Assembly: GCA_050949825.1 (NCBI GenBank)
Contig: JBMNGL010000013.1
Span: 11,038 to 75,037, forward strand
Length of the DNA stretch: 64,000 bases
Direction: 5' to 3'
DNA from: Syntrophomonadaceae bacterium
Lineage (GTDB): Bacteria; Bacillota; Syntrophomonadia; Syntrophomonadales; Syntrophomonadaceae
This document shows, piece after piece, positions 54,515 through 64,000 of this stretch (position 1 is the stretch's first letter; each line of letters begins with the position of its first letter). The translations under genes were made by a program, and so were the position numbers. The notes under the pieces are model-generated. The model ran no database searches, was not told the origin of the DNA, and saw nothing but the letters and a program-made list of their open reading frames with translations.

Positions 54515-55866
54515 GTCATCCCAAGCGAGTATATCATTCTAAGCTAAGCTTGTCATTCTAAGCGGAGCTAGTCATCCTGAGCGAAGCGAAGGATCTTACC
54601 CGGGGGTTGTTCGCTGCGCGAAAGATCCTTCGGGCGTTGCCCTCAGGATGACAAAGTCGGGCGCTGCCCTTAAGGATGACAAAAAGACGGGCGTTGCTGA
54701 GGTGTCATCCTGAGCGAAGCGAAGGATCTTACCCGGGGGTTGTTCGCTGCGCGAAAGATCCTTCGGGCGTTGCCCTCAGGATGACAAAGTCGGGCGCTGC
54801 CCTCAGGATGACAAAAAGACGGGCGTTGCTGAGGTGTCATCCTGAGCGGAGCGAAGGATCTTACCCGGGGGTTGTTCGCTGCGCGAAAGATCCTTCGGGC
54901 GTTGCCCTCAGGATGACAAAGTCGGGCGCTGCCCTTAAGGATGACAAAGTCGGGCGCTGCCCTTAAGGATGACAAAGTCGGGCGCTGCCCTTAAGGATGA
55001 CAAAGACGGGCGTTGCCCTTAAGGATGACAAAGACGGGCGTTGCCCTCAGGATGACAAAGTCGGGCGCTGCTGAGGTGTCATCCTGAGCGAAGCGAAGGA
55101 TCTTACCTGGGGGTTGTTCGCTGCGCGAAAGATCCTTCAGGCGCTGCCCTCAGGATGACAAAGTCGGGCGCTGCCCTTAAGGATGACAAAGACGGGCGTT
55201 GCTGAGGTGTCATCCTGAGCGAAGCGAAGGATCTTACCCGGGGGTTGTTCGCTGCGCGAAAGATCCTTCGGGCGTTGCCCTCAGGATGACAAAGTCGGGC
55301 GCTGCCCTTAAGGATGACAAAGACGGGCGTTGCTGAGGTGTCATCCTGAGCGAAGCGAAGGATCTTACCCGGGGGTTGTTCGCTGCGCGAAAGATCCTTC
55401 GGGCGTTGCCCTCAGGATGACAAAGTCGGGCGCTGCCCTTAAGGATGACAAAAAGACGGGCGTTGCTGAGGTGTCATCCTGAGCGAAGCGAAGGATCTTA
55501 CCCGGGGGTTGTTCGCTGCGCGAAAGATCCTTCGGGCGCTGCCCTTAAGGATGACAAAGACGGGCGTTGCCCTTAAGGATGACAAAGACGGGCGTTGCCC
55601 TTAAGGATGACAAAGACGGGCGTTGCCCTTAAGGATGACAAAGACGGGCGTTGCCCTTAAGGATGACAAAGACGGGCGTTGCCCTTAAGGATGACAAAGA
55701 CGGGCGTTGCCCTTAAGGATGACAAAGACGGGCGTTGCCCTTAAGGATGACAAAGACGGGCGTTGCCCTTAAGGATGACAAAGACGGGCGTTGCCCTTAA
55801 GGATGACAAAGACGGGCGTTGCCCTTAAGGATGACAAAGACGGGCCTTGCCCTCAGGATGACAAAG
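54515..55866 (+). repeat. Hierarchical non-coding repeat array (7 long hairpin modules interleaved with 28-nt units)
   Basis: The long module gtcatcctgagcgaagcgaaggatc ... gatccttcgggcgttgccctcaggatgac starts at 54571, 54704, 54836, 55078, 55209, 55340 and 55473. The spacing is 131-133 nt except for one gap of 242 nt. Each is followed by 28-nt units of the form gatgacaaag(t/a)cgggcg(c/t)tgccct(t/c)a(a/g)g. Confidence 0.95.
55542..55849 (+). repeat. Perfect 28-nt tandem repeat block
   Basis: cccttaaggatgacaaagacgggcgttg repeated head to tail. Ten identical copies span 55542-55821, followed by one copy with a single change. Confidence 0.95.
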
Positions 55867-55987
55867 GGGGGGCAGTGGCTCTTAGCCCTGCCTTCGTGGG
55901 CACGGCCCCTTTCGCCAGTCCTCCCGAGATGTTTGATAGCACCATATCCTAACGGTTGTTAAAAAGACAAGAATATTGTGATAGTAT

Positions 55988-56017
55988 TTGCCTATTCATA
56001 TATAGTTGTCCTATAAT
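55988..56017 (+). promoter_or_regulatory. Candidate sigma-A promoter of the riboswitch-controlled operon
   Basis: TTGCCT (55988-55993), 18-nt spacer, TATAAT (56012-56017), about 15 nt upstream of the riboswitch. Confidence 0.45.
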
Positions 56018-56029
56018 GGGAAAAAACAA

Positions 56030-56212
56030 TATTGGTTGCGCTGGGTGCCTCTGTAAGAGGATAATAGGGAACCAGGTGAGAAACCTGGACGGTCGCGCCA
56101 CTGTGAGCAGATATGCTTTTCCAAATGCCACTGGGTCCAAGCAGGCCTGGGAAGGGGGAAAAAGTTAACTGCAAGTCAGGAAACCTGCCCAATGCATCGC
56201 AGTATCAACCTT
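56030..56212 (+). ncRNA. Cobalamin (AdoCbl-type) riboswitch
   Basis: aatagggaaccaggtgagaaacctggacggtcgcgccactgt, then gccactggg ... cctgggaagg, then the B12 box aagtcaggaaacctgcc (56173-56189). P1-like pairing is ggttg (56034-56038) with caacc (56206-56210). Confidence 0.9.
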
Positions 56213-56250
56213 CGCGTAGAGAGGGGGATAGGTGCATGTGAAAATATATG

Positions 56251-56286
56251 GCCTCAACTTCTTTATAGGGAAGTTGAGGCTTTTGT
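56251..56286 (+). terminator. Intrinsic terminator (riboswitch expression platform)
   Basis: Perfect 10-bp stem gcctcaactt (56251-56260) with aagttgaggc (56271-56280), then ttttgt. Confidence 0.75.
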
Positions 56287-56474
56287 ATGTTATGAGGTCA
56301 ATGATAGGGACGATAAACAATCTCGACTAAAATCATCATTATGTCGATTGCTGTTGAATGGATTGAATAGTGGTCGGCGTTAGGCGTCCGTTATTCCTAA
56401 TCTTAATTTTAGACATATTACAACAGAAAAATTATTATTCGTTCTGCATTAAGTGGATAAGGGGGGCTATATTA

Positions 56475-59400
56475 ATGCAAAAACGTTTTTTAGTGCTTTT
56501 GACTATGGCAGCCATGCTGCTAAGCCTGTTATTGGCTGTTCCTGTTGTGGGATCAGGGACTGTAGAGGTTGATTTGCGGGTAGAGGGAATAACAGAGACG
56601 ATTTATGAAGGTTCAGCGGCAGTGGAGCCGGGGGCCACCGCTCTGGATGTATTGGAACAGTCTTTGACAGTGGCGGGGGTCGTATATGAAATCACTGATG
56701 ACCCCACCTTTGGGAAGTATATAAAATCAATTAAAGGAGAAGCCGCCGGGGCTTTTGGCGGTTATGACGGCTGGCTGTACCTGGTCAACGGCAGCATGGC
56801 CGCATTGGGTGTGGCCGAATACGAAATACAGGATGGGGACGAACTGGTATTCTACTACGGGATGTACCCGCCCGATACTCTGATTCCTGAGGTTGAAATC
56901 AGCCCGGCAGAGCCGGAAAGCGGCGAAGAAATCACCGTTACGGTCAGCTCCAGTTATTACAATTGGGAGACTGAGAAGACGGTAAACGTGCTGGTGGAAA
57001 ACGCCACGGTGGCCTGCAACGGCCAGGAATACACCACGGATGAGCAGGGTGTTGCCACTATAGCAGGTTTGGATGCGGGAAGCTATACGCTGCGGGTGAG
57101 CAAGGATGTCTTGGGCAGCTATCCGGCCCTGGTCAGAAGCGGAGCTATCCCCCTGACGGTATCGTTGCCTGCCGACAAAACCGTGCAGGTCAGGGTGGAA
57201 GGCAGCCGGCAAAACCTTTTCGATGATGAAGTTACGGTAGCCTCAAGCGGGGAGCAGCAAACCGCTCTGGATGCACTGGAACAGGCCTTGACCGGGGCGG
57301 TGATCGATTATGAAATCACTGATGACCCCACCTTTGGGAAGTATATAAAATCAATTAAAGGAGAAGCCGCCGGGGATTTTGGCGGTTATGACGGCTGGCT
57401 GTACTTGGTCAACGGCAGCATGGCCGCCTCTGGTGCAGACCAGTATGAAATACAGGACGGGGACGAACTGGTATTTTACTACGGGAAGTACCCGCCTGAC
57501 ACCTTGATCCCGGAAGTAAGAATCAGCCCGGCAGAGCCTGAAAGCGGCGAAGAAATCACCGTTACGGTCAGCTCCAGTTATTACAATTGGGAGACTGAGA
57601 AGACGGTAAACGTGCTGGCGGAAAACGCCACGGTGGCCTGCAACGGCCGGGAATACACCACCGATGCGCAGGGGGAAGCCACCATACCGGGATTAGCCCG
57701 GGGAAGCTATACGCTGCGGGTGAGCAAGGATGTCCCGGGCAGCTATCCGGCCCTGGTCAGGAGCGGCGCCATACCTCTAACGGTAGTGGCGGCGGGAAAT
57801 GATGACCTGCAGGAAGGTATTGATAAAGCCATCGATTATTTAATCGCCCAGCAAGAGGAGGATGGGAAGCTGGGACCCAACGCGGCCCTGGCCCTGTATA
57901 AAGCGGGCCGGGATGTTTCGCAAATCACCACAAACGGCAAAAACGACCTGGATTACCTGCAGCGCCTATTGCAGGACGACTATGCCGGGTATATTAACAG
58001 CACCTCCCGGCTGGCTTTAACCATCATGGAGATTGTGGCCGGAGGCGGCGACCCGGCTGATTTTGCCGGGCATAATCTGGTCGCGGAATTGACCGCTCTC
58101 CAGGATGACAACGGGCTTTTTGGCACCAATGAGGAGCAGGATTATATTGTTACCCAGTATTGGGCCATAATGGCCTTGCATGAAGCCGGGGTTGATATTC
58201 CCCAAGCCCAGCAAGCCCGGCAGTGGCTGCTGGAAAATGTCAGCAGCAATGGGGGCTGGAGTTGGGCGGTTGGCGAAGGTCCTTCACCGGATATGACCGC
58301 TTATGTCATCAGAGCCTTGCTGGTTTTGGGAGAAGCGCCCGATAGCGACGCCATCACCAATGCCAAGACCTATCTCAAGACCTATCAGCATGAAGACGCC
58401 GGCTTCGATAATGGCTGGACATCTGATTCCAATGTGTGGACAACCGCAGAAGTGATAAAAGCACTGGTGGATTTGGATATAGATCCATCCGGCGACACCT
58501 GGAGCATGGATGGATATAATCCCGTGCTCTACCTGCTCAACCAGCAAAAGGCTTCGGGGGAAATAGGCAACCTGGCCGGCACGGCCGACAGCCTGACAGC
58601 CCTGGTGATGTTCGCGGCAAAATATGATTTGGATGAAAACGGCTCTGATCCATCGCATACTGGCGGCGGAGGCGAAGGCAGCGCGGACACCATCAGTGTG
58701 AAAATTGCGGTTGTCGGGCCGGGGAATGAATTTTTATTCAAACCGGGCGAGGTCACTATATCGAAAAAGGGTCGCTTCGGCCTGACGGCTATGGAAGCCT
58801 TGGAGGCCACCGGTTTGAGCTGGAGTTTTTCCACGGAATGGGAAGGTTTTGTAGTGGCTATTGAAGGTGTTCGGAATGCGGGACTAAACGGGTGGTGCTA
58901 CAGTGTCAATGGTCAAAGCGCCACGGTTTTAGCCATGGATCAAGCGGTTTCATCCGGCAGCAGAGTGATCTGGTGGTACAGCACCGATGCCATGTCAAAT
59001 GGACCCACCTGGCAGGAACTGCTGGACTTGAGCGCAGCAGCAGGAGGAGCGGCGGCAGTTGTAAAGCCTGCCGATGAAGATGAAGTTAAGAATAATCTGG
59101 CGCAATATGGTGAGCAATTGGATACGGCTTTCGCACGGGTGCAAAATGCCGACGGCAGTCCGCTGCTGGTATTGAACGCCGACAAGAGGATGACGCCGCT
59201 TGACGCTGTTGCCCTGAAGAAAGAACTGGACAACAACCGGGTCCACCTGCAGCAGCCGGCCGGAGCTGAAGAAACGCTCATGGTCGACAATGAAATCGCT
59301 TTGCTGGTTCCTGAGAATGCTCTCCTTGAGGAGACCAACCTTACGGTAAAAGAACTGGGGACTCAGGAAGCGCCCCAGCAATACGCAGTCAGGCTGGCTT

Positions 59401-60179
59401 CATCGGTTTACGAGTTCGGACCGGATGGCCTGGTGTTTGCCCAGCCGGTGACCATTTCCATTACGGTTGCCTTAACCGACGATATTAACCTGGAGGATTT
59501 GACCCCGGCCTGGTATGATGAAAAATCCGGGCAATGGATTCCGCTTCCGGCGGTAATTGACCTGGAAACTGGTCAAGTGGTATTCAGGATTGATCATTTC
59601 ACCAGTTTTGCCATTATTCAGAAGCCGCCGCGCCCGAGTTTTAACGACCTGGAAGGCTATGCCTGGGCACAGGAGGCCATCGAAATCCTGGCCGGTCAAA
59701 ATGTCATTGCCGGCACCGGGCAGGGCTTTGAACCGGGCCGGAACATCACCCGGGCGGAGTTTGTGAAGCTGGTGGTGACTGCAGCAGGATTGGAGGCCAA
59801 AAAGGGACAGATCAGTCAATTTAGCGACGTGAAGGCCGGGGATTGGTTCGAGCCCGCCATTTGCAGTGCCTGTTCGCACCAACTGACGGCAGGATATGCT
59901 GATGGCAGCTTCAAACCGGGCCAGAGTATCAGTCGCTATGAAGTGGCGGTTATTCTGCACAATGCAGATAAAAACAAAGTGCTGAACGGTTCGACAGGAC
60001 TAAGCTATGCAGATAGCAATAACATTCCCGATTGGGCCGCTGGCGGGGTGAAATATGTCCAGGCCGCCAAGCTTATGCAAGGCTATGAAGACGGTTCCTT
60101 TGGCGGCAGCAGACCGCTCACCCGGGCTGAAGCTGCCGTTATCATCTACCGGTATCTGAACGCCAGGCTGATAAGCTAG
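56475..60179 (+). CDS. Secreted SLH-anchored protein with three DUF4430 (transcobalamin C-terminal-like) domains, Ig-like domains and an alpha/alpha-toroid (prenyltransferase/terpene-cyclase-like) domain
   Basis: ATG 56475 lies behind aaggggggc, and the signal peptide is MQKRFLVLLTMAAMLLSLLLAVPVVGSG. DUF4430-like segments contain GYDGWLYLVNG (twice) and LNGWCYSVNG. Toroid repeats lie around DYLIAQQEEDG ... LQDDNGLFG ... NGGWSW ... QHEDAGFDNGW. There are three C-terminal SLH motifs (FNDLEGYAWAQEAIEIL, FSDVKAGDWF, YADSNNIPDWAAGGVKYV). Listed ORF is 56370..60179. Confidence 0.8.
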   Translation: MQKRFLVLLTMAAMLLSLLLAVPVVGSGTVEVDLRVEGITETIYEGSAAVEPGATALDVLEQSLTVAGVVYEITDDPTFGKYIKSIKGEAAGAFGGYDGWLYLVNGSMAALGVAEYEIQDGDELVFYYGMYPPDTLIPEVEISPAEPESGEEITVTVSSSYYNWETEKTVNVLVENATVACNGQEYTTDEQGVATIAGLDAGSYTLRVSKDVLGSYPALVRSGAIPLTVSLPADKTVQVRVEGSRQNLFDDEVTVASSGEQQTALDALEQALTGAVIDYEITDDPTFGKYIKSIKGEAAGDFGGYDGWLYLVNGSMAASGADQYEIQDGDELVFYYGKYPPDTLIPEVRISPAEPESGEEITVTVSSSYYNWETEKTVNVLAENATVACNGREYTTDAQGEATIPGLARGSYTLRVSKDVPGSYPALVRSGAIPLTVVAAGNDDLQEGIDKAIDYLIAQQEEDGKLGPNAALALYKAGRDVSQITTNGKNDLDYLQRLLQDDYAGYINSTSRLALTIMEIVAGGGDPADFAGHNLVAELTALQDDNGLFGTNEEQDYIVTQYWAIMALHEAGVDIPQAQQARQWLLENVSSNGGWSWAVGEGPSPDMTAYVIRALLVLGEAPDSDAITNAKTYLKTYQHEDAGFDNGWTSDSNVWTTAEVIKALVDLDIDPSGDTWSMDGYNPVLYLLNQQKASGEIGNLAGTADSLTALVMFAAKYDLDENGSDPSHTGGGGEGSADTISVKIAVVGPGNEFLFKPGEVTISKKGRFGLTAMEALEATGLSWSFSTEWEGFVVAIEGVRNAGLNGWCYSVNGQSATVLAMDQAVSSGSRVIWWYSTDAMSNGPTWQELLDLSAAAGGAAAVVKPADEDEVKNNLAQYGEQLDTAFARVQNADGSPLLVLNADKRMTPLDAVALKKELDNNRVHLQQPAGAEETLMVDNEIALLVPENALLEETNLTVKELGTQEAPQQYAVRLASSVYEFGPDGLVFAQPVTISITVALTDDINLEDLTPAWYDEKSGQWIPLPAVIDLETGQVVFRIDHFTSFAIIQKPPRPSFNDLEGYAWAQEAIEILAGQNVIAGTGQGFEPGRNITRAEFVKLVVTAAGLEAKKGQISQFSDVKAGDWFEPAICSACSHQLTAGYADGSFKPGQSISRYEVAVILHNADKNKVLNGSTGLSYADSNNIPDWAAGGVKYVQAAKLMQGYEDGSFGGSRPLTRAEAAVIIYRYLNARLIS

Positions 60180-60300
60180 GCTGTTCAAGCTGATCGCGAT
60201 TATTCTGCCGGCATTACCGAACCGGCCGGCTGCTGCGGCAGACGGCCGGAGACGGCCGGAGGTAGTGCACAGCCCAATGTACAACGAGATGAGGGGGGTA

Positions 60301-61470
60301 ATGGTGAATTACAGTATACGCAATATGGTCATTGTCTTCCTGGCAGCCCTCCTGCTGCTGGGCATATCCGGCTGCACGGTGAAAAACGAGCAGTTTTCAC
60401 CGGTGAATCCTGCCGCTGTCGGCGGCTCCGGGACCGCCAACAGCCTTGACCCGCAAGAGGCCAATGCAGGTGCGGACAGTTCTCCAGATAAAGCGGCGCC
60501 GGATTCCCGGACCGCCAGCGCCGGTGAAGATGCCAATGGAGCTCAATCCGGCGCAGTAAGCAGCGCCGGGGTTGATAATGCCAGGCAGAGTCAGATTTCA
60601 AACACCGCCAAGGGCACGGTTTCATTATTGATCAGCCGCAATTACGGCCGGCAAAATTTGATCCGGGAACATATATCCCTTGAGCCGGGATGGACCATTC
60701 TTGATGTTTTGAATACCTCAGCGCAAGTAACTACCAAATGGGATGGCAGCTTTGTAGACAGCATTAACGGAATGCAATCGAATTCCGGCGGTTTAACGGG
60801 TAAAAATCATGACTGGTTTTACTTTATTAACGGCATTTGCGCCGATGTGGGCGCCCCTGAATACATTTTGCGAGCCGGGGAAAAGGTATGGTGGGACTAT
60901 CATGCCTGGGGAAACACGGGGCTTACCAACCCGGCGGTGATAGGCTGCTACCCAGAGCCGTTTGTCCATGGCTATCGCGGTAAATCAGGACCGACGACGG
61001 TCATGAGTTCAGCCGCAAACAGCAGTCTGGCCCAAGCCGTGCAGCAAGCCCTGCAGGCTCAAGGGGCGGCCTCGGTTCAATGCAGCGCTTTAAACAATGA
61101 ACTGCTGCAAAATCGCCCCGGACCCATTATAGTGGTGGGAACCTGGGATGAATTAAAACAACTGCCCTGGCTGGATGGTTTTAATAAATCCTTTAGAAAA
61201 AACGGCACCAGCGTTCATTTTAAAGACGATGGAGTGGAATTATTGGACGGCCGCGGCAAAGTGATCCAAAACAGCGGTCCCGGTACAGGTATTATAGCCG
61301 CCTCGGCTGCCGGTTTGGGAAACTATAAAGTGCTCTGGCTGCTGGCCGGCACGGATCAGAATGGCCTGCAAAATGCAGTGAACACCATGGTGCATCATCC
61401 CCAGCAGCTTAACGGCTTATATCACGCGGCGGTCATATCCGGGCAGGTTATTCGTTTGCCATTGGAGTAG
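60301..61470 (+). CDS. DUF4430-domain lipoprotein
   Basis: The lipobox is LLLLGISGC. A low-complexity linker follows, then a DUF4430-like segment (WDGSFVDSINGMQSNSGG ... HDWFYFINGICADVGAPEYILRAGEKVWWDY). ATG 60301 lies behind gagggggg. Listed ORF is 60265..61470. Confidence 0.7.
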   Translation: MVNYSIRNMVIVFLAALLLLGISGCTVKNEQFSPVNPAAVGGSGTANSLDPQEANAGADSSPDKAAPDSRTASAGEDANGAQSGAVSSAGVDNARQSQISNTAKGTVSLLISRNYGRQNLIREHISLEPGWTILDVLNTSAQVTTKWDGSFVDSINGMQSNSGGLTGKNHDWFYFINGICADVGAPEYILRAGEKVWWDYHAWGNTGLTNPAVIGCYPEPFVHGYRGKSGPTTVMSSAANSSLAQAVQQALQAQGAASVQCSALNNELLQNRPGPIIVVGTWDELKQLPWLDGFNKSFRKNGTSVHFKDDGVELLDGRGKVIQNSGPGTGIIAASAAGLGNYKVLWLLAGTDQNGLQNAVNTMVHHPQQLNGLYHAAVISGQVIRLPLE

Positions 61471-61483
61471 AAGGAAGTTGGCC

Positions 61484-62398
61484 ATGCTGGTTTTTCGCGA
61501 AAAGAATAATTTAATACATCAGTTGCATCCCATCACCAGTCTGACCTTCATCGGGGTGGTCTTTGTACTGTCCCTGACCTGCTCCCATCCTATTTACCTC
61601 TTAGGGTTGCTGGCGGTGACAGGCATGGTGATCATTGCCGCCGGGCACTGGGAGGAATGGCTCGTCTATCTTAAGTTCAGCCTGCTCATGATCGCCATGC
61701 TCATGATTATTAATGTTGTTTTTGTGCATATAGGGGATACCGTGCTGTTTGCCGGACCCAGGCTCCCGGTGATAGGAAAGTTGAATATAACCCTGGAAGC
61801 GCTGGCCTATGCGGGGGGAATGGGGATGAGGCTTCTGGTTATCATCAGTGTTTTTTGTCTTTACACTTATGCCATCCATCCTGACAAGGTGTTGAAACTG
61901 TTCAGCAAATGGGGCCACAAATCGGTGCTGGTGATCACTTTATCCACGCGCTTGTTCCCCCTCCTGGTGCAGGATTATCTGCGCATTACCGAGGTGCAGC
62001 GCTGCAGGGGAGTGAAATTCGCTTCCGGCAGTTGGTGGGAGCGCTTGAACAAGGTTTTGTCCGTAGTCAGCGTACTGCTGGTATCCTGCCTGGATCGAGC
62101 CCTGCAGCTGGCCGAGTCCATGCAGGCCCGCGGCTATGGCAGCGGCAGCCGCAGCAGTTATGATCGTGAATTATGGCGGCCCCGGGATTTTGTCATTTTA
62201 AGCGCTCTGGGGGCCGGATTGATTTGCGGCCTGTGGAGTGCGCTTAAGGGATGGTCGGCATATTTGTATTATCCCCATCTGGCGGCTTTCCGGCCGGAGG
62301 AGATAAAAATGGCCGCTTTTATTGTACTGATGTTGAGTGTGCCGGCCTGGCTTAACTGGGGGTGGCTTAAATGCCGGTTATTGCGATCAAAGATTTGA
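61484..62398 (+). CDS. ECF transporter transmembrane (T) component, EcfT/CbiQ family
   Basis: About 6 TM helices, and the conserved cytoplasmic ...RALQLAESMQARGY... arginine-containing coupling helix. Listed ORF is 61478..62398 (TTG start). ATG 61484 is better spaced from the SD. Confidence 0.75.
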   Translation: MLVFREKNNLIHQLHPITSLTFIGVVFVLSLTCSHPIYLLGLLAVTGMVIIAAGHWEEWLVYLKFSLLMIAMLMIINVVFVHIGDTVLFAGPRLPVIGKLNITLEALAYAGGMGMRLLVIISVFCLYTYAIHPDKVLKLFSKWGHKSVLVITLSTRLFPLLVQDYLRITEVQRCRGVKFASGSWWERLNKVLSVVSVLLVSCLDRALQLAESMQARGYGSGSRSSYDRELWRPRDFVILSALGAGLICGLWSALKGWSAYLYYPHLAAFRPEEIKMAAFIVLMLSVPAWLNWGWLKCRLLRSKI

Positions 62399-64000
62399 CC
62401 TACTATTATCCTGATACTGAACCCCCGGCCCTGGATAAAATCAATTTGGATATTCACGAGGGGCAAATGATTCTGCTATTGGGCGGCTCCGGCAGCGGAA
62501 AATCGAGCCTGGTGCGCGCCATAGCCGGGTTGATTCCTGAATATTACGGCGGGACATACCAGGGCAAAGTGCTGCTGAACAAGCAGGAGATATTAAAGAT
62601 GGACCGCCGTACGGTGGCGCAGCAGGTGGGCCTGGTATTTCAAGATCCGGAAAGCCAGCTGGTTATGACCGGTGTGGAGCAGGAAGTGGTGTTCGGCATG
62701 GAGAACCTGGGCTTGCCCAATAAGCTGATGAAGCGGCGGGTCATGGAAGTCACCAGTGCTTTGAGCATTACCGAGTACCTGCATCATTTCATACCGGAAT
62801 TGTCGGGAGGGCAGAAGCAAAAGGTGGCTTTGGCCTCCGTACTGGCCATGCAGCCGCGCATATTGCTGCTGGATGAACCTACCTCACAGTTGGATCCTGT
62901 CGCCGGTGAAGAGATTCTGACCATGGTAAGAAGGCTTAACGAAGACAATGGTATAACCGTGGTTTTGGTGGAGCAGCGCCTGGAAAGATGTTTTCATTTG
63001 GCGGATCGCATCCTGGTCATGGAGCGGGGCAAGATTATCCACGACCAAACCAACCCGGCATCTCCGGGCCAATTGGCCTTTGCCAGGGACATCCCCTGCC
63101 TGCCGCCTTTGGCACAGTTGTTTATGCGGGCCGGCTCCTCTGAAATTCCCGCCACGGTAAAGCAAGGCCGCCGCATTATCAGATCCTATGCGGTCCCGGA
63201 TGCCGTCTATGCGGCAATGCCCGCTGATAAACCCCGCCGGGATCAGCAGATGGGCCAGAAGTCAGAATTGTTGGCAATAAGCAGCCTGTGGTTCTCCTAC
63301 CCCCATGGCAAGGAAGTGTTGAAAAATGTTAATTTTAAGATAAATGCGGGGGATTTTATTGTGCTTATGGGGGAAAACGGCGCCGGAAAAACCACCCTTA
63401 TGAAACAGATTAACGGTCTGTTAAAGCCGGACCGGGGACAGGTAGTCTTCCTGGGGCAGGACACCAAACATCGTTCGGTGGAGGATATGGCCGCGGATAT
63501 CGGCTACCTGTCGCAAAACCCCAGTGATTATCTATTCCTGCCCACAGTGCGCGATGAAATGGATTTCACCTTGCACAACCTGGGGCTTACAGATGACGGA
63601 TACAGCCGACAGCTCCTGGAAGGTTTGGGAATCGATGGCTGCCTGGAGATCAACCCGCGTGATTTGAGCACCGGGCAGCGGCAGAGGGTGGCCCTGGCTT
63701 CGGTTTTGCTCAGCCGACCCAAACTGCTCTTGCTGGATGAACCGACGCGAGGGTTGGATTATGTTTTGAAGGAGCAGTTAGGGGCCATTTTGAAGCATAT
63801 TCAGGCCCGGGGAACGGCGATTCTGGTCATTACTCATGATGTGGAATTCGCAGCGGAATTCGCTGATGAAATTGCATTAATGGACCAGGGGGGCATTATT
63901 GCCCAGGGAGACAAGTATTCCATGCTGTCCAATTCCACTTTTTATTCCCCGCAAACCAGCAAGCTGTTTAACAATATCGCCGATGGCATAGTCACTATGG
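62371..64000 (+). CDS. ECF transporter ATPase, duplicated ABC domains (EcfA-EcfA' fusion), 3' end outside the window
   Basis: ATG 62371 overlaps the EcfT stop. There are two Walker A motifs (GGSGSGKSS, GENGAGKTT), two signature motifs (LSGGQKQ, LSTGQRQ) and two Walker B motifs (LLLDEP twice). The frame is open to base 64000. It is absent from the ORF track because no stop lies in the window. Confidence 0.85.
   Translation, partial: MPVIAIKDLTYYYPDTEPPALDKINLDIHEGQMILLLGGSGSGKSSLVRAIAGLIPEYYGGTYQGKVLLNKQEILKMDRRTVAQQVGLVFQDPESQLVMTGVEQEVVFGMENLGLPNKLMKRRVMEVTSALSITEYLHHFIPELSGGQKQKVALASVLAMQPRILLLDEPTSQLDPVAGEEILTMVRRLNEDNGITVVLVEQRLERCFHLADRILVMERGKIIHDQTNPASPGQLAFARDIPCLPPLAQLFMRAGSSEIPATVKQGRRIIRSYAVPDAVYAAMPADKPRRDQQMGQKSELLAISSLWFSYPHGKEVLKNVNFKINAGDFIVLMGENGAGKTTLMKQINGLLKPDRGQVVFLGQDTKHRSVEDMAADIGYLSQNPSDYLFLPTVRDEMDFTLHNLGLTDDGYSRQLLEGLGIDGCLEINPRDLSTGQRQRVALASVLLSRPKLLLLDEPTRGLDYVLKEQLGAILKHIQARGTAILVITHDVEFAAEFADEIALMDQGGIIAQGDKYSMLSNSTFYSPQTSKLFNNIADGIVTM

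Follow-up and report, generated by a model that had tools for sequence, protein, structure and literature searches.

Secreted proteins of Gram-positive bacteria carrying SLBB domains were predicted in 2007 to scavenge vitamin B12, in a work without experiments that also proposed a bacterial origin of the animal B12 carriers (Burroughs, Balaji, Iyer & Aravind, Biol Direct 2:4, PMC1796856). In the available text of that work, such proteins have the SLBB domain, now DUF4430, fused N- or C-terminally to an alpha/alpha toroid, with Ig-fold domains as spacers, and their operons hold a second SLBB paralogue next to a CbiO-like ATPase and a CbiQ-like membrane protein; in a Desulfotomaculum example the toroid lies N-terminal to the SLBB domain. 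This same combination, a secreted SLBB-toroid protein in the Desulfotomaculum order, a second SLBB paralogue and CbiO/CbiQ-type proteins in one operon, is found at the end of a 64,000-nucleotide (nt) stretch from a Syntrophomonadaceae bacterium (assembly GCA_050949825.1, contig JBMNGL010000013.1, positions 11,038 to 75,037; hereafter the window, in which all coordinates are numbered from its first letter and all features described lie on the forward strand). Here, a cobalamin riboswitch precedes genes for a protein anchored to the cell wall by S-layer homology (SLH) domains, a lipoprotein and an energy-coupling factor (ECF) transporter module. The locus is a further case of the very widespread system predicted in 2007, and no new kind of thing, and it probably encodes a B12-repressed importer of the ECF-CbrT type with transcobalamin-fold partners that capture corrinoids.

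Other described systems share parts of this arrangement. ECF-CbrT of Lactobacillus delbrueckii (6FNP) is an ECF-type importer of B12 and cobinamide in which CbrT is the substrate-binding S component (Santos et al. 2018, PMC5997447), and a CbrUVT system has been named in comparative genomics (PMC6593275). The S component of our locus aligns with CbrT over 166 residues; however, the L. delbrueckii protein depends on a group II ECF module that is shared, and the published work describes no surface partners for it (PMC5997447), whereas the locus has a dedicated module, fused ATPases and three co-transcribed extracytoplasmic proteins of transcobalamin fold. An operon of Lactobacillus sakei (lsa1836-1840) encodes an S component, a fused A-A' ATPase and a T component together with two distinct secreted proteins, one beta-like and one alpha-like (bioRxiv 10.1101/864751), the latter two corresponding to the split between genes 2 and 5 of the present operon. 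It differs in that heme is the proposed substrate and, in the accessible part of that preprint, no riboswitch is reported, the beta protein's C-terminal domain is not discussed and a large SLH-anchored multidomain protein is not among the products. Animal transcobalamin, intrinsic factor and haptocorrin (2BB5, 2BB6, 2PMV, 4KKI) combine the two folds of the toroid-DUF4430 unit of gene 1 in an identical order. On the contrary, the gene 1 toroid lacks PF01122, its unit forms part of a larger, wall-anchored protein that has two further beta domains, and delivery, which in animals proceeds through endocytic receptors, is predicted to take place to a membrane transporter. A functional analogy also exists with BtuG and BtuH of Bacteroides, surface lipoproteins under riboswitch regulation that capture corrinoids for a transporter, even though these have an unrelated beta-propeller fold and serve the TonB-dependent BtuB in a diderm outer membrane.

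Regulation by cobalamin is indicated by the leader of the operon. The Rfam family RF00174 matches positions 56026-56206 with 110.3 bits (gathering score 31.5, E 2e-27) and spans the full model (positions 1-189 of 189), in the region of about 56030-56212 where an aptamer had been anticipated. The same match is present on L001, a 150-kb JGI metagenome contig that is 99.94 % identical to window positions 55729-64000 and on which the genes beyond the window were read. A promoter-like element, TTGCCT-18 nt-TATAAT at 55988-56017 (L001 4505-4534), agrees with 10 of 12 consensus positions and is a consensus match only. An intrinsic terminator begins 44 nt 3' of the aptamer (56250-56291; 14-bp G+C-rich stem, 4-nt loop and U-rich tail, -24.5 kcal/mol when folded alone), and the leader region folds more stably than shuffled sequences (z-score -3.1). 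A competing antiterminator-like fold exists as well, because the 5' arm of the terminator pairs with 56215-56240 when its 3' arm is omitted, giving a candidate antiterminator hairpin at 56215-56266 (duplex -16.6 kcal/mol). Folding thus shows an expression platform able to switch the downstream genes, made of the terminator and its competing hairpin, in which the ligand-bound state would be the terminator fold.

Directly upstream of the riboswitch promoter lies a 1.35-kb hierarchical tandem repeat array (54515-55866), built of 28-nt units and higher-order units of 131-132 nt. This array is 196 nt, or seven 28-nt units, longer in the window than in the otherwise 99.9 % identical L001, and its edge (55988) is a break point in assemblies of other runs.

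Four co-directional genes follow within the window. The first-pass annotation, made from the letters alone, had read them, behind a cobalamin riboswitch with its own terminator, as a 1,234-residue secreted protein with three DUF4430 domains, a toroid and three SLH anchors, a DUF4430 lipoprotein, EcfT and a fused EcfA-EcfA' ATPase, and each of these assignments was borne out by profile searches, complemented for gene 1 by a structural model. Gene 1 (56475-60179) encodes 1,234 amino acids with a signal peptide at residues 1-28. Its start is the ATG at 56475, also chosen by gene callers (L001 4992-8696); a longer open reading frame from a GTG at 56370 is used by none of them. Pfam finds three DUF4430 domains (PF14478, 130 bits), three SLH domains (PF00395, 113.5 bits), two CarboxypepD_reg/Ig-like domains and, at residues 537-700, weak matches to SQHop_cyclase and Prenyltrans repeats, the family types that had been expected for the toroid. 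From the N-terminus, the protein is organized as a first DUF4430/SLBB domain (residues ~29-130, 56559-56864), a first Ig-like domain (CarboxypepD_reg/SpaA-like, PF13620/PF17802, 56880-57170), a second DUF4430 domain (57183-57488), a second Ig-like domain (57504-57785, PF13620, best stretch at residues 383-419), an alpha/alpha toroid of 12 helices (residues 438-720, 57786-58634), a third DUF4430 domain (residues ~738-840, 58686-58994), connected with the toroid through a disordered Gly-rich linker, a region of about 200 residues (~850-1050, 59022-59624) and the three cell-wall-anchoring SLH domains in three stretches (59637-60176). For residues ~850-1050 no Pfam family exceeds its cut-off, the only match being the ZU5-like PF00791 with a sub-threshold 19.7 bits. 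In a PDB sequence search, the SLH part finds the corresponding domains of Sap, an S-layer protein (6BT4, 3PYW).

The DUF4430-Ig module of gene 1 is tandemly duplicated (56559-57785) with a period of 624 nt, the second DUF4430 domain belonging to the second copy, and 155 of 208 residues are identical between copies (75 % in protein, ~89 % in DNA). A relative, P0069 (1,028 amino acids, 92-95 % identical), is devoid of exactly one such module. The number of beta domains therefore differs between strains, as P0069 has a single copy of the module.

Likeness to transcobalamin was evaluated separately for each domain and for the two-domain unit. The identification of DUF4430 with the transcobalamin beta domain, already made in the first annotation, agrees with the literature as far as the available text goes (PMC4350170, PMC1796856) and is further supported by sequence and structure: copy 1 of gene 1 matches the isolated transcobalamin beta domain 5NO0 (E 0.003) and also transcobalamin residues 313-402, while the model of the gene 2 product superimposes on 5NO0 with a template-modelling (TM) score of 0.64 and likewise finds 3U7Z, a bacterial DUF4430 protein of solved structure. 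Both proteins thus carry beta domains of the PF14478 type, as in the eukaryotic cobalamin carriers. For the unit, residues 438-850 of gene 1 were searched against the full library, which yielded 2,763 cluster representatives at E <=1e-3, with 20 of the best 150 matches covering both domains in one stretch, and the same residues aligned with 16 two-domain homologues served as input for modelling. The resulting AlphaFold model (me864920513ce, predicted local distance difference test score (pLDDT) 90.3, with values >90 in the toroid) shows twelve helices, the disordered Gly-rich linker and a beta-grasp domain, that is, the toroid-linker-beta architecture of the cobalamin carriers. Its 14 best fold matches in the PDB are all transcobalamin, intrinsic factor or haptocorrin, aligned over ~430 columns that include both domains (E 2e-10 to 3e-8), in accordance with the structural resemblance foreseen in the first annotation; squalene-hopene and other class II terpene cyclases rank after them and cover the toroid only. 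On this model, the toroid-DUF4430 unit is predicted to be built like, and to work like, a B12 carrier.

Sequence comparison of the toroid leads in another direction. Its family profile, compared with the PDB, finds squalene-hopene cyclase (1GSZ) with E 7e-39 in four stretches, and QW-type repeats are present. A D-x-D-x-T motif occurs as SPDMTA in gene 1 (SPDMTAYVIRAL, window ~58260-58295) and as DADDTG in the toroid of gene 5 (DADDTGIAIQAL, L001 13346-13381). Asp and Thr of the D-x-D-x-T-[AG] motif are invariant in 52 of 52 toroids that stand alone or are fused to an S component, and toroids inside large fusion proteins are degenerate at this position, with Asp in 16 of 30. The motif resembles DxDDTA of class II terpene cyclases, which is a resemblance only: in an attempted alignment with the cyclases the alignments covered the SLH part only, and squalene-hopene cyclase matches fell on other repeats. 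Each of these proteins has, besides, a single toroid of ~280 residues, located outside the cytoplasm.

Gene 2 (60277-61470) encodes a lipoprotein of 397 amino acids with the lipobox ISGC, whose Cys33 (60373-60375) is invariant in 43 homologues, one DUF4430 domain (residues 114-211) and a conserved alpha/beta C-terminal domain of ~180 residues (220-397, 60934-61467). Its model has a pLDDT of 82 overall and >90 from residue 110. Throughout the family, the alpha/beta domain always follows DUF4430, with Trp and Gly residues that never vary and, where the two domains meet, a W-W-D-x-H motif. No family of Pfam or NCBIfam matches this C-terminal domain, and a fold search returned only weak multi-domain matches (BcsB, GH115, lacto-N-biosidase) with root-mean-square deviations (rmsd) >15 Å. 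The nearest further relatives, with <=60 % identity, are from Syntrophomonadaceae and Desulfallas.

The membrane module starts with gene 3 (61484-62398), encoding the transmembrane coupling component EcfT of the CbiQ family (304 amino acids; PF02361, 65 bits); the product from its ATG recurs identically on L001 and on several Logan contigs, and the one from a TTG two codons earlier matches none. Gene 4 (62371-64000) encodes the fused EcfA-EcfA' ATPase, above the cut-offs of both TIGR04520 (ECF_ATPase_1, 385 bits) and TIGR04521 (ECF_ATPase_2, 379 bits). It runs off the window, its full length of 563 amino acids ending 62 nt past the edge on L001. The first-pass annotation had found no S component before the window ends, which holds within the window, but this absence is an effect of the window edge, since L001 carries one. 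There, gene 5 (window-equivalent 64352-65914) encodes a secreted protein of 520 amino acids with a toroid (Prenyltrans/SQHop_cyclase) and two SLH domains, and gene 6 (window-equivalent 65970-66677) the 235-residue CbrT-like S component that had been suggested as worth seeking downstream. This protein matches PF12822 and PF07155 above their cut-offs, as well as DUF6580, and is related in sequence to the characterized CbrT: residues 60-225 align with 11-176 of 6FNP chain A (E 8.6e-13), the only real PDB match, as the other stays at chance level (E 0.25). A convergent gene of the PD-(D/E)XK nuclease family, labelled 'transposase' (PF12784, 217 bits), lies just past the S component on the reverse strand (L001 15326-16321), and its product carries a repeat tail rich in Glu, Gly, Arg and Lys.

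Spacers between the six genes are 97, 13, -28, 289 and 55 nt, genes 3 and 4 overlapping by 28 nt. The scan of L001 showed no terminator-like site in the intergenic spacers of the operon and one riboswitch only; in particular, the 289-nt spacer before gene 5 contains neither. With T, two EcfA domains and S encoded together, as in dedicated (group I) transporters, the importer is shown by homology to be a group I ECF transporter composed of EcfT, fused EcfA-A' and a CbrT-like S component, and the operon is, as predicted from these sequence relationships, a complete dedicated ECF-CbrT-type system.

Conservation of this gene set was explored with the gene 2 family (DUF4430 plus the ~180-residue C-terminal domain) as probe. 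The family occurs at at least 591 places in species-representative genomes, and 80 loci were fetched, whose stop-to-stop reading frames were compared with profiles built from the operon. Carriers are found among Bacillota (Syntrophomonas, Desulfallas, Thermosyntropha, Desulforadius, Dethiobacter, Tumebacillus), Actinomycetota (Solirubrobacterales, Thermoleophilaceae), Dehalococcoidia and Bathyarchaeia. Downstream of the probe gene lies EcfT in 74 of the 80 loci, every match to the operon being on the strand of the probe, and EcfT, fused EcfAA', the CbrT-like S component and the toroid are all present in 49 of the 52 loci with >=6 kb downstream, these 49 being distributed over three phyla. The large toroid-DUF4430-SLH protein is encoded upstream in most Bacillota loci and in none from Actinomycetota. 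The conserved core consists of five parts, namely the DUF4430 lipoprotein with its C-terminal domain, EcfT, EcfAA', the toroid and the CbrT-like S component, to which gene 1 adds a variable outer element.

S component and toroid are joined in one reading frame, with one extra hydrophobic helix between them, in 26 of the 80 loci, all from Actinomycetota (for instance L046 13337-15151 and L040 13204-15366, detected by profile search among L037-L086). Public gene calls (NCBI, ENA, JGI) agree, giving fusion proteins of ~560-635 amino acids, many with PF12822 plus PF13243, most of which JGI labels 'ECF substrate-specific component'. In ECF S components both the N- and the C-terminus are cytoplasmic; therefore, one added helix would put the toroid outside, directly above the S component. 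These fusions are the strongest argument for the toroid acting on the transporter, beyond mere co-regulation.

The riboswitch is likewise a recurrent element. Rfam RF00174 was found upstream and on the same strand in 11 of 14 sampled loci, and a covariance model built from these Rfam-verified riboswitches and run on the 80 loci gave 62 matches (55-162 bits) in 57 of them, all upstream and on the operon strand. Among the 23 loci where this covariance model found none, 12 are on contigs truncated near or within the upstream genes, 10 come from Dehalococcoidia, other Chloroflexota or Bathyarchaeia despite >=2.5 kb of upstream sequence (L027, L031-L034, L036, L041, L051, L059, L085), and one is from Thermoleophilaceae. 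Riboswitch control is thus near-universal outside Dehalococcoidia and Bathyarchaeia. Cultured Dehalococcoides are corrinoid auxotrophs, and unregulated expression in their Dehalococcoidia relatives would be sensible if that auxotrophy were shared. Two same-strand upstream riboswitches occur at some loci (L025 4959-5725, L026 5637-6175, L009 369-2262 and L077 5282-8395), close tandems being those of Desulfallas sp. Bu1-1 and Dethiobacter, and a molybdenum cofactor (Moco) riboswitch lies downstream in L033 (15523-15648).

In the mechanism envisaged, plentiful cobalamin would occupy the aptamer, the terminator would form and transcription would stop, whereas under corrinoid scarcity the alternative hairpin would take the 5' arm of the terminator and the operon would be read through. 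The gene 1 protein, tethered to the wall through its SLH domains, would then capture corrinoids with two solitary beta domains, spaced by Ig-like domains, and with its toroid-linker-beta unit. Near the membrane, the wall-anchored toroid of gene 5 and the membrane lipoprotein of gene 2 would form a split transcobalamin that passes the ligand to CbrT, which would topple in the membrane upon ATP hydrolysis by the ECF module and release the ligand inside. Surface corrinoid capture feeding an ECF importer had already been put forward in the first-pass annotation, and context now lends it support through the CbrT-like S component, the conserved gene set and the Actinomycetota fusions. To our knowledge, ECF transporters by definition work without extracytoplasmic binding proteins. 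That the present system is an exception, in which the split transcobalamin would dock on the S component as an obligatory receptor, an outer, S-layer-anchored multi-beta protein would in Bacillota supply a first tier of capture and complete a relay through the thick wall, the Actinomycetota fusions would represent the fixed complex and the lipoprotein C-terminal domain would act as a docking or gating element, is a tentative proposal to which we give somewhat less than even chances.

Several points weigh against corrinoid capture by transcobalamin-fold partners. The fold matches to transcobalamin, intrinsic factor and haptocorrin have TM scores of just 0.42-0.47 with rmsd values of 11-12 Å, and the model, which is apo and has a disordered linker, does not reproduce the mutual position of the two domains in the carriers. 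Such an orientation mismatch is what modelling of an apo form with a floppy linker should give, but the fold match is no proof of a shared binding mode. The 60 best of the 71 PDB matches of the toroid profile do not include transcobalamin, and no PF01122 (Cobalamin_bind) match was obtained for the toroid of gene 1 or gene 5 at E <=0.01 or 0.1. As regards the earlier claim that a toroid followed by DUF4430 reproduces the carriers, fold and order stand in the model and the toroid sequence family does not; the toroid appears to share fold and domain order with the eukaryotic carriers, their family kinship not being demonstrable. The literature consulted yielded no binding or transport measurement for bacterial DUF4430 proteins or for toroid proteins of this type, and the sole experimental paper found on a related operon, that on L. 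sakei lsa1836-1840, argues for heme in its available part (bioRxiv 10.1101/864751). Finally, gene 5 could have a separate promoter in the 289-nt spacer that precedes it, and gene 5 and the S component are known from the near-identical contig L001, outside the window.

The explanation that competes best assumes an ordinary ECF-CbrT needing no partners, with the SLH, toroid and DUF4430 proteins co-regulated for another purpose, such as hoarding corrinoids from competitors, modification of corrinoids by a cyclase-like toroid, or wall structure. It draws on the fact that L. delbrueckii ECF-CbrT functions without such proteins in E. coli and in proteoliposomes (PMC5997447), on the resemblance of the toroid sequence to class II terpene cyclases, on the invariant Asp that core toroids retain in the D-x-D-x-T motif and on the variation of gene 1 between strains. 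Against it stand the covalent S-toroid fusions, seen at 26 of 80 loci and returned in large number by database searches, and the joint occurrence of the beta-domain lipoprotein with its C-terminal domain, the toroid and the S component in 49 of 52 complete loci of three phyla; an extracellular terpene cyclase would, besides, be without an obvious substrate. We consider this explanation unlikely.

Uptake of heme or of another non-corrin tetrapyrrole, as put forward for lsa1836-1840, is far less probable still. That proposal, based in the accessible part of the preprint on docking and physiology (10.1101/864751), concerns an operon with the same S, fused AA', T, beta-like and alpha-like products, but the cobalamin riboswitch here and at 57 of 80 homologous loci, the match of the S component to CbrT and the presence of the two fold families known from B12 carriers all point to corrinoids. 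The remaining candidate, an ECF importer for cobalt of the CbiMNQO type whose neighbouring wall proteins would have nothing to do with it, was rejected as scarcely credible. PF02361 ('Cobalt transport protein') is matched, as is the cbiO subfamily TIGR01166, and cobalt importers too are commonly controlled by B12 riboswitches, but the operon has neither CbiM nor CbiN, the CbiQ equivalog TIGR02454 reaches only 50.2 bits (cut-off 111.8), the ATPase scores above the cut-offs of the general ECF ATPase equivalogs and the S component is CbrT-like.

With corrinoid import retained as the preferred reading, the features particular to this locus are modest: anchoring through SLH domains, a set of three beta domains whose duplicated module varies between strains, and the coexistence of fused and split units in one operon. 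The terms 'SLH', 'S-layer' and 'riboswitch' appear nowhere in the 2007 work (PMC1796856), and its available text does not mention a CbrT-like S component, which was unknown in 2007, the lipoprotein C-terminal domain or S-toroid fusions. A literature search joining cobalamin riboswitch with S-layer homology found no paper, and the lipoprotein C-terminal domain, the fusions of S component, transmembrane helix and toroid, and the near-universal riboswitch control were not found described in the accessible parts of the related literature.

Regarding occurrence, the closest named record is the metagenome-assembled genome Oscillospiraceae bacterium STF2_99, 99.2 % identical over 3.5 kb, and the locus recurs, with a word share of 88-99 %, in metagenomes from anaerobic digesters, sludge, wastewater, bioreactors and landfill. 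Two RNA-labelled runs contain a few short contigs on genes 1, 2, 3 and 4, with DNA carry-over possible; this hints that the operon is transcribed in situ, as weak evidence that says nothing on regulation.

B12 is made by few microbes and required by many, and the mode of its capture therefore shapes communities such as those of anaerobic digesters. Characterized B12 uptake systems are few, BtuBFCD, ECF-CbrT and BtuM being examples in the literature consulted, and for monoderm bacteria, surface proteins resembling transcobalamin have stood as a prediction from bioinformatics since 2007. The family is a large one, with its at least 591 loci in species-representative genomes and 2,763 clusters related to the toroid and DUF4430, and the system is worth experiment because it is so widespread. 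The comparison offers three handles for this, namely the five-part core, the near-universal riboswitch control and the S-toroid fusions occurring in nature, an argument that the ligand is handed directly to the transporter. Moreover, the system is relevant to the proposal that the B12 carriers of animals originated in bacteria.

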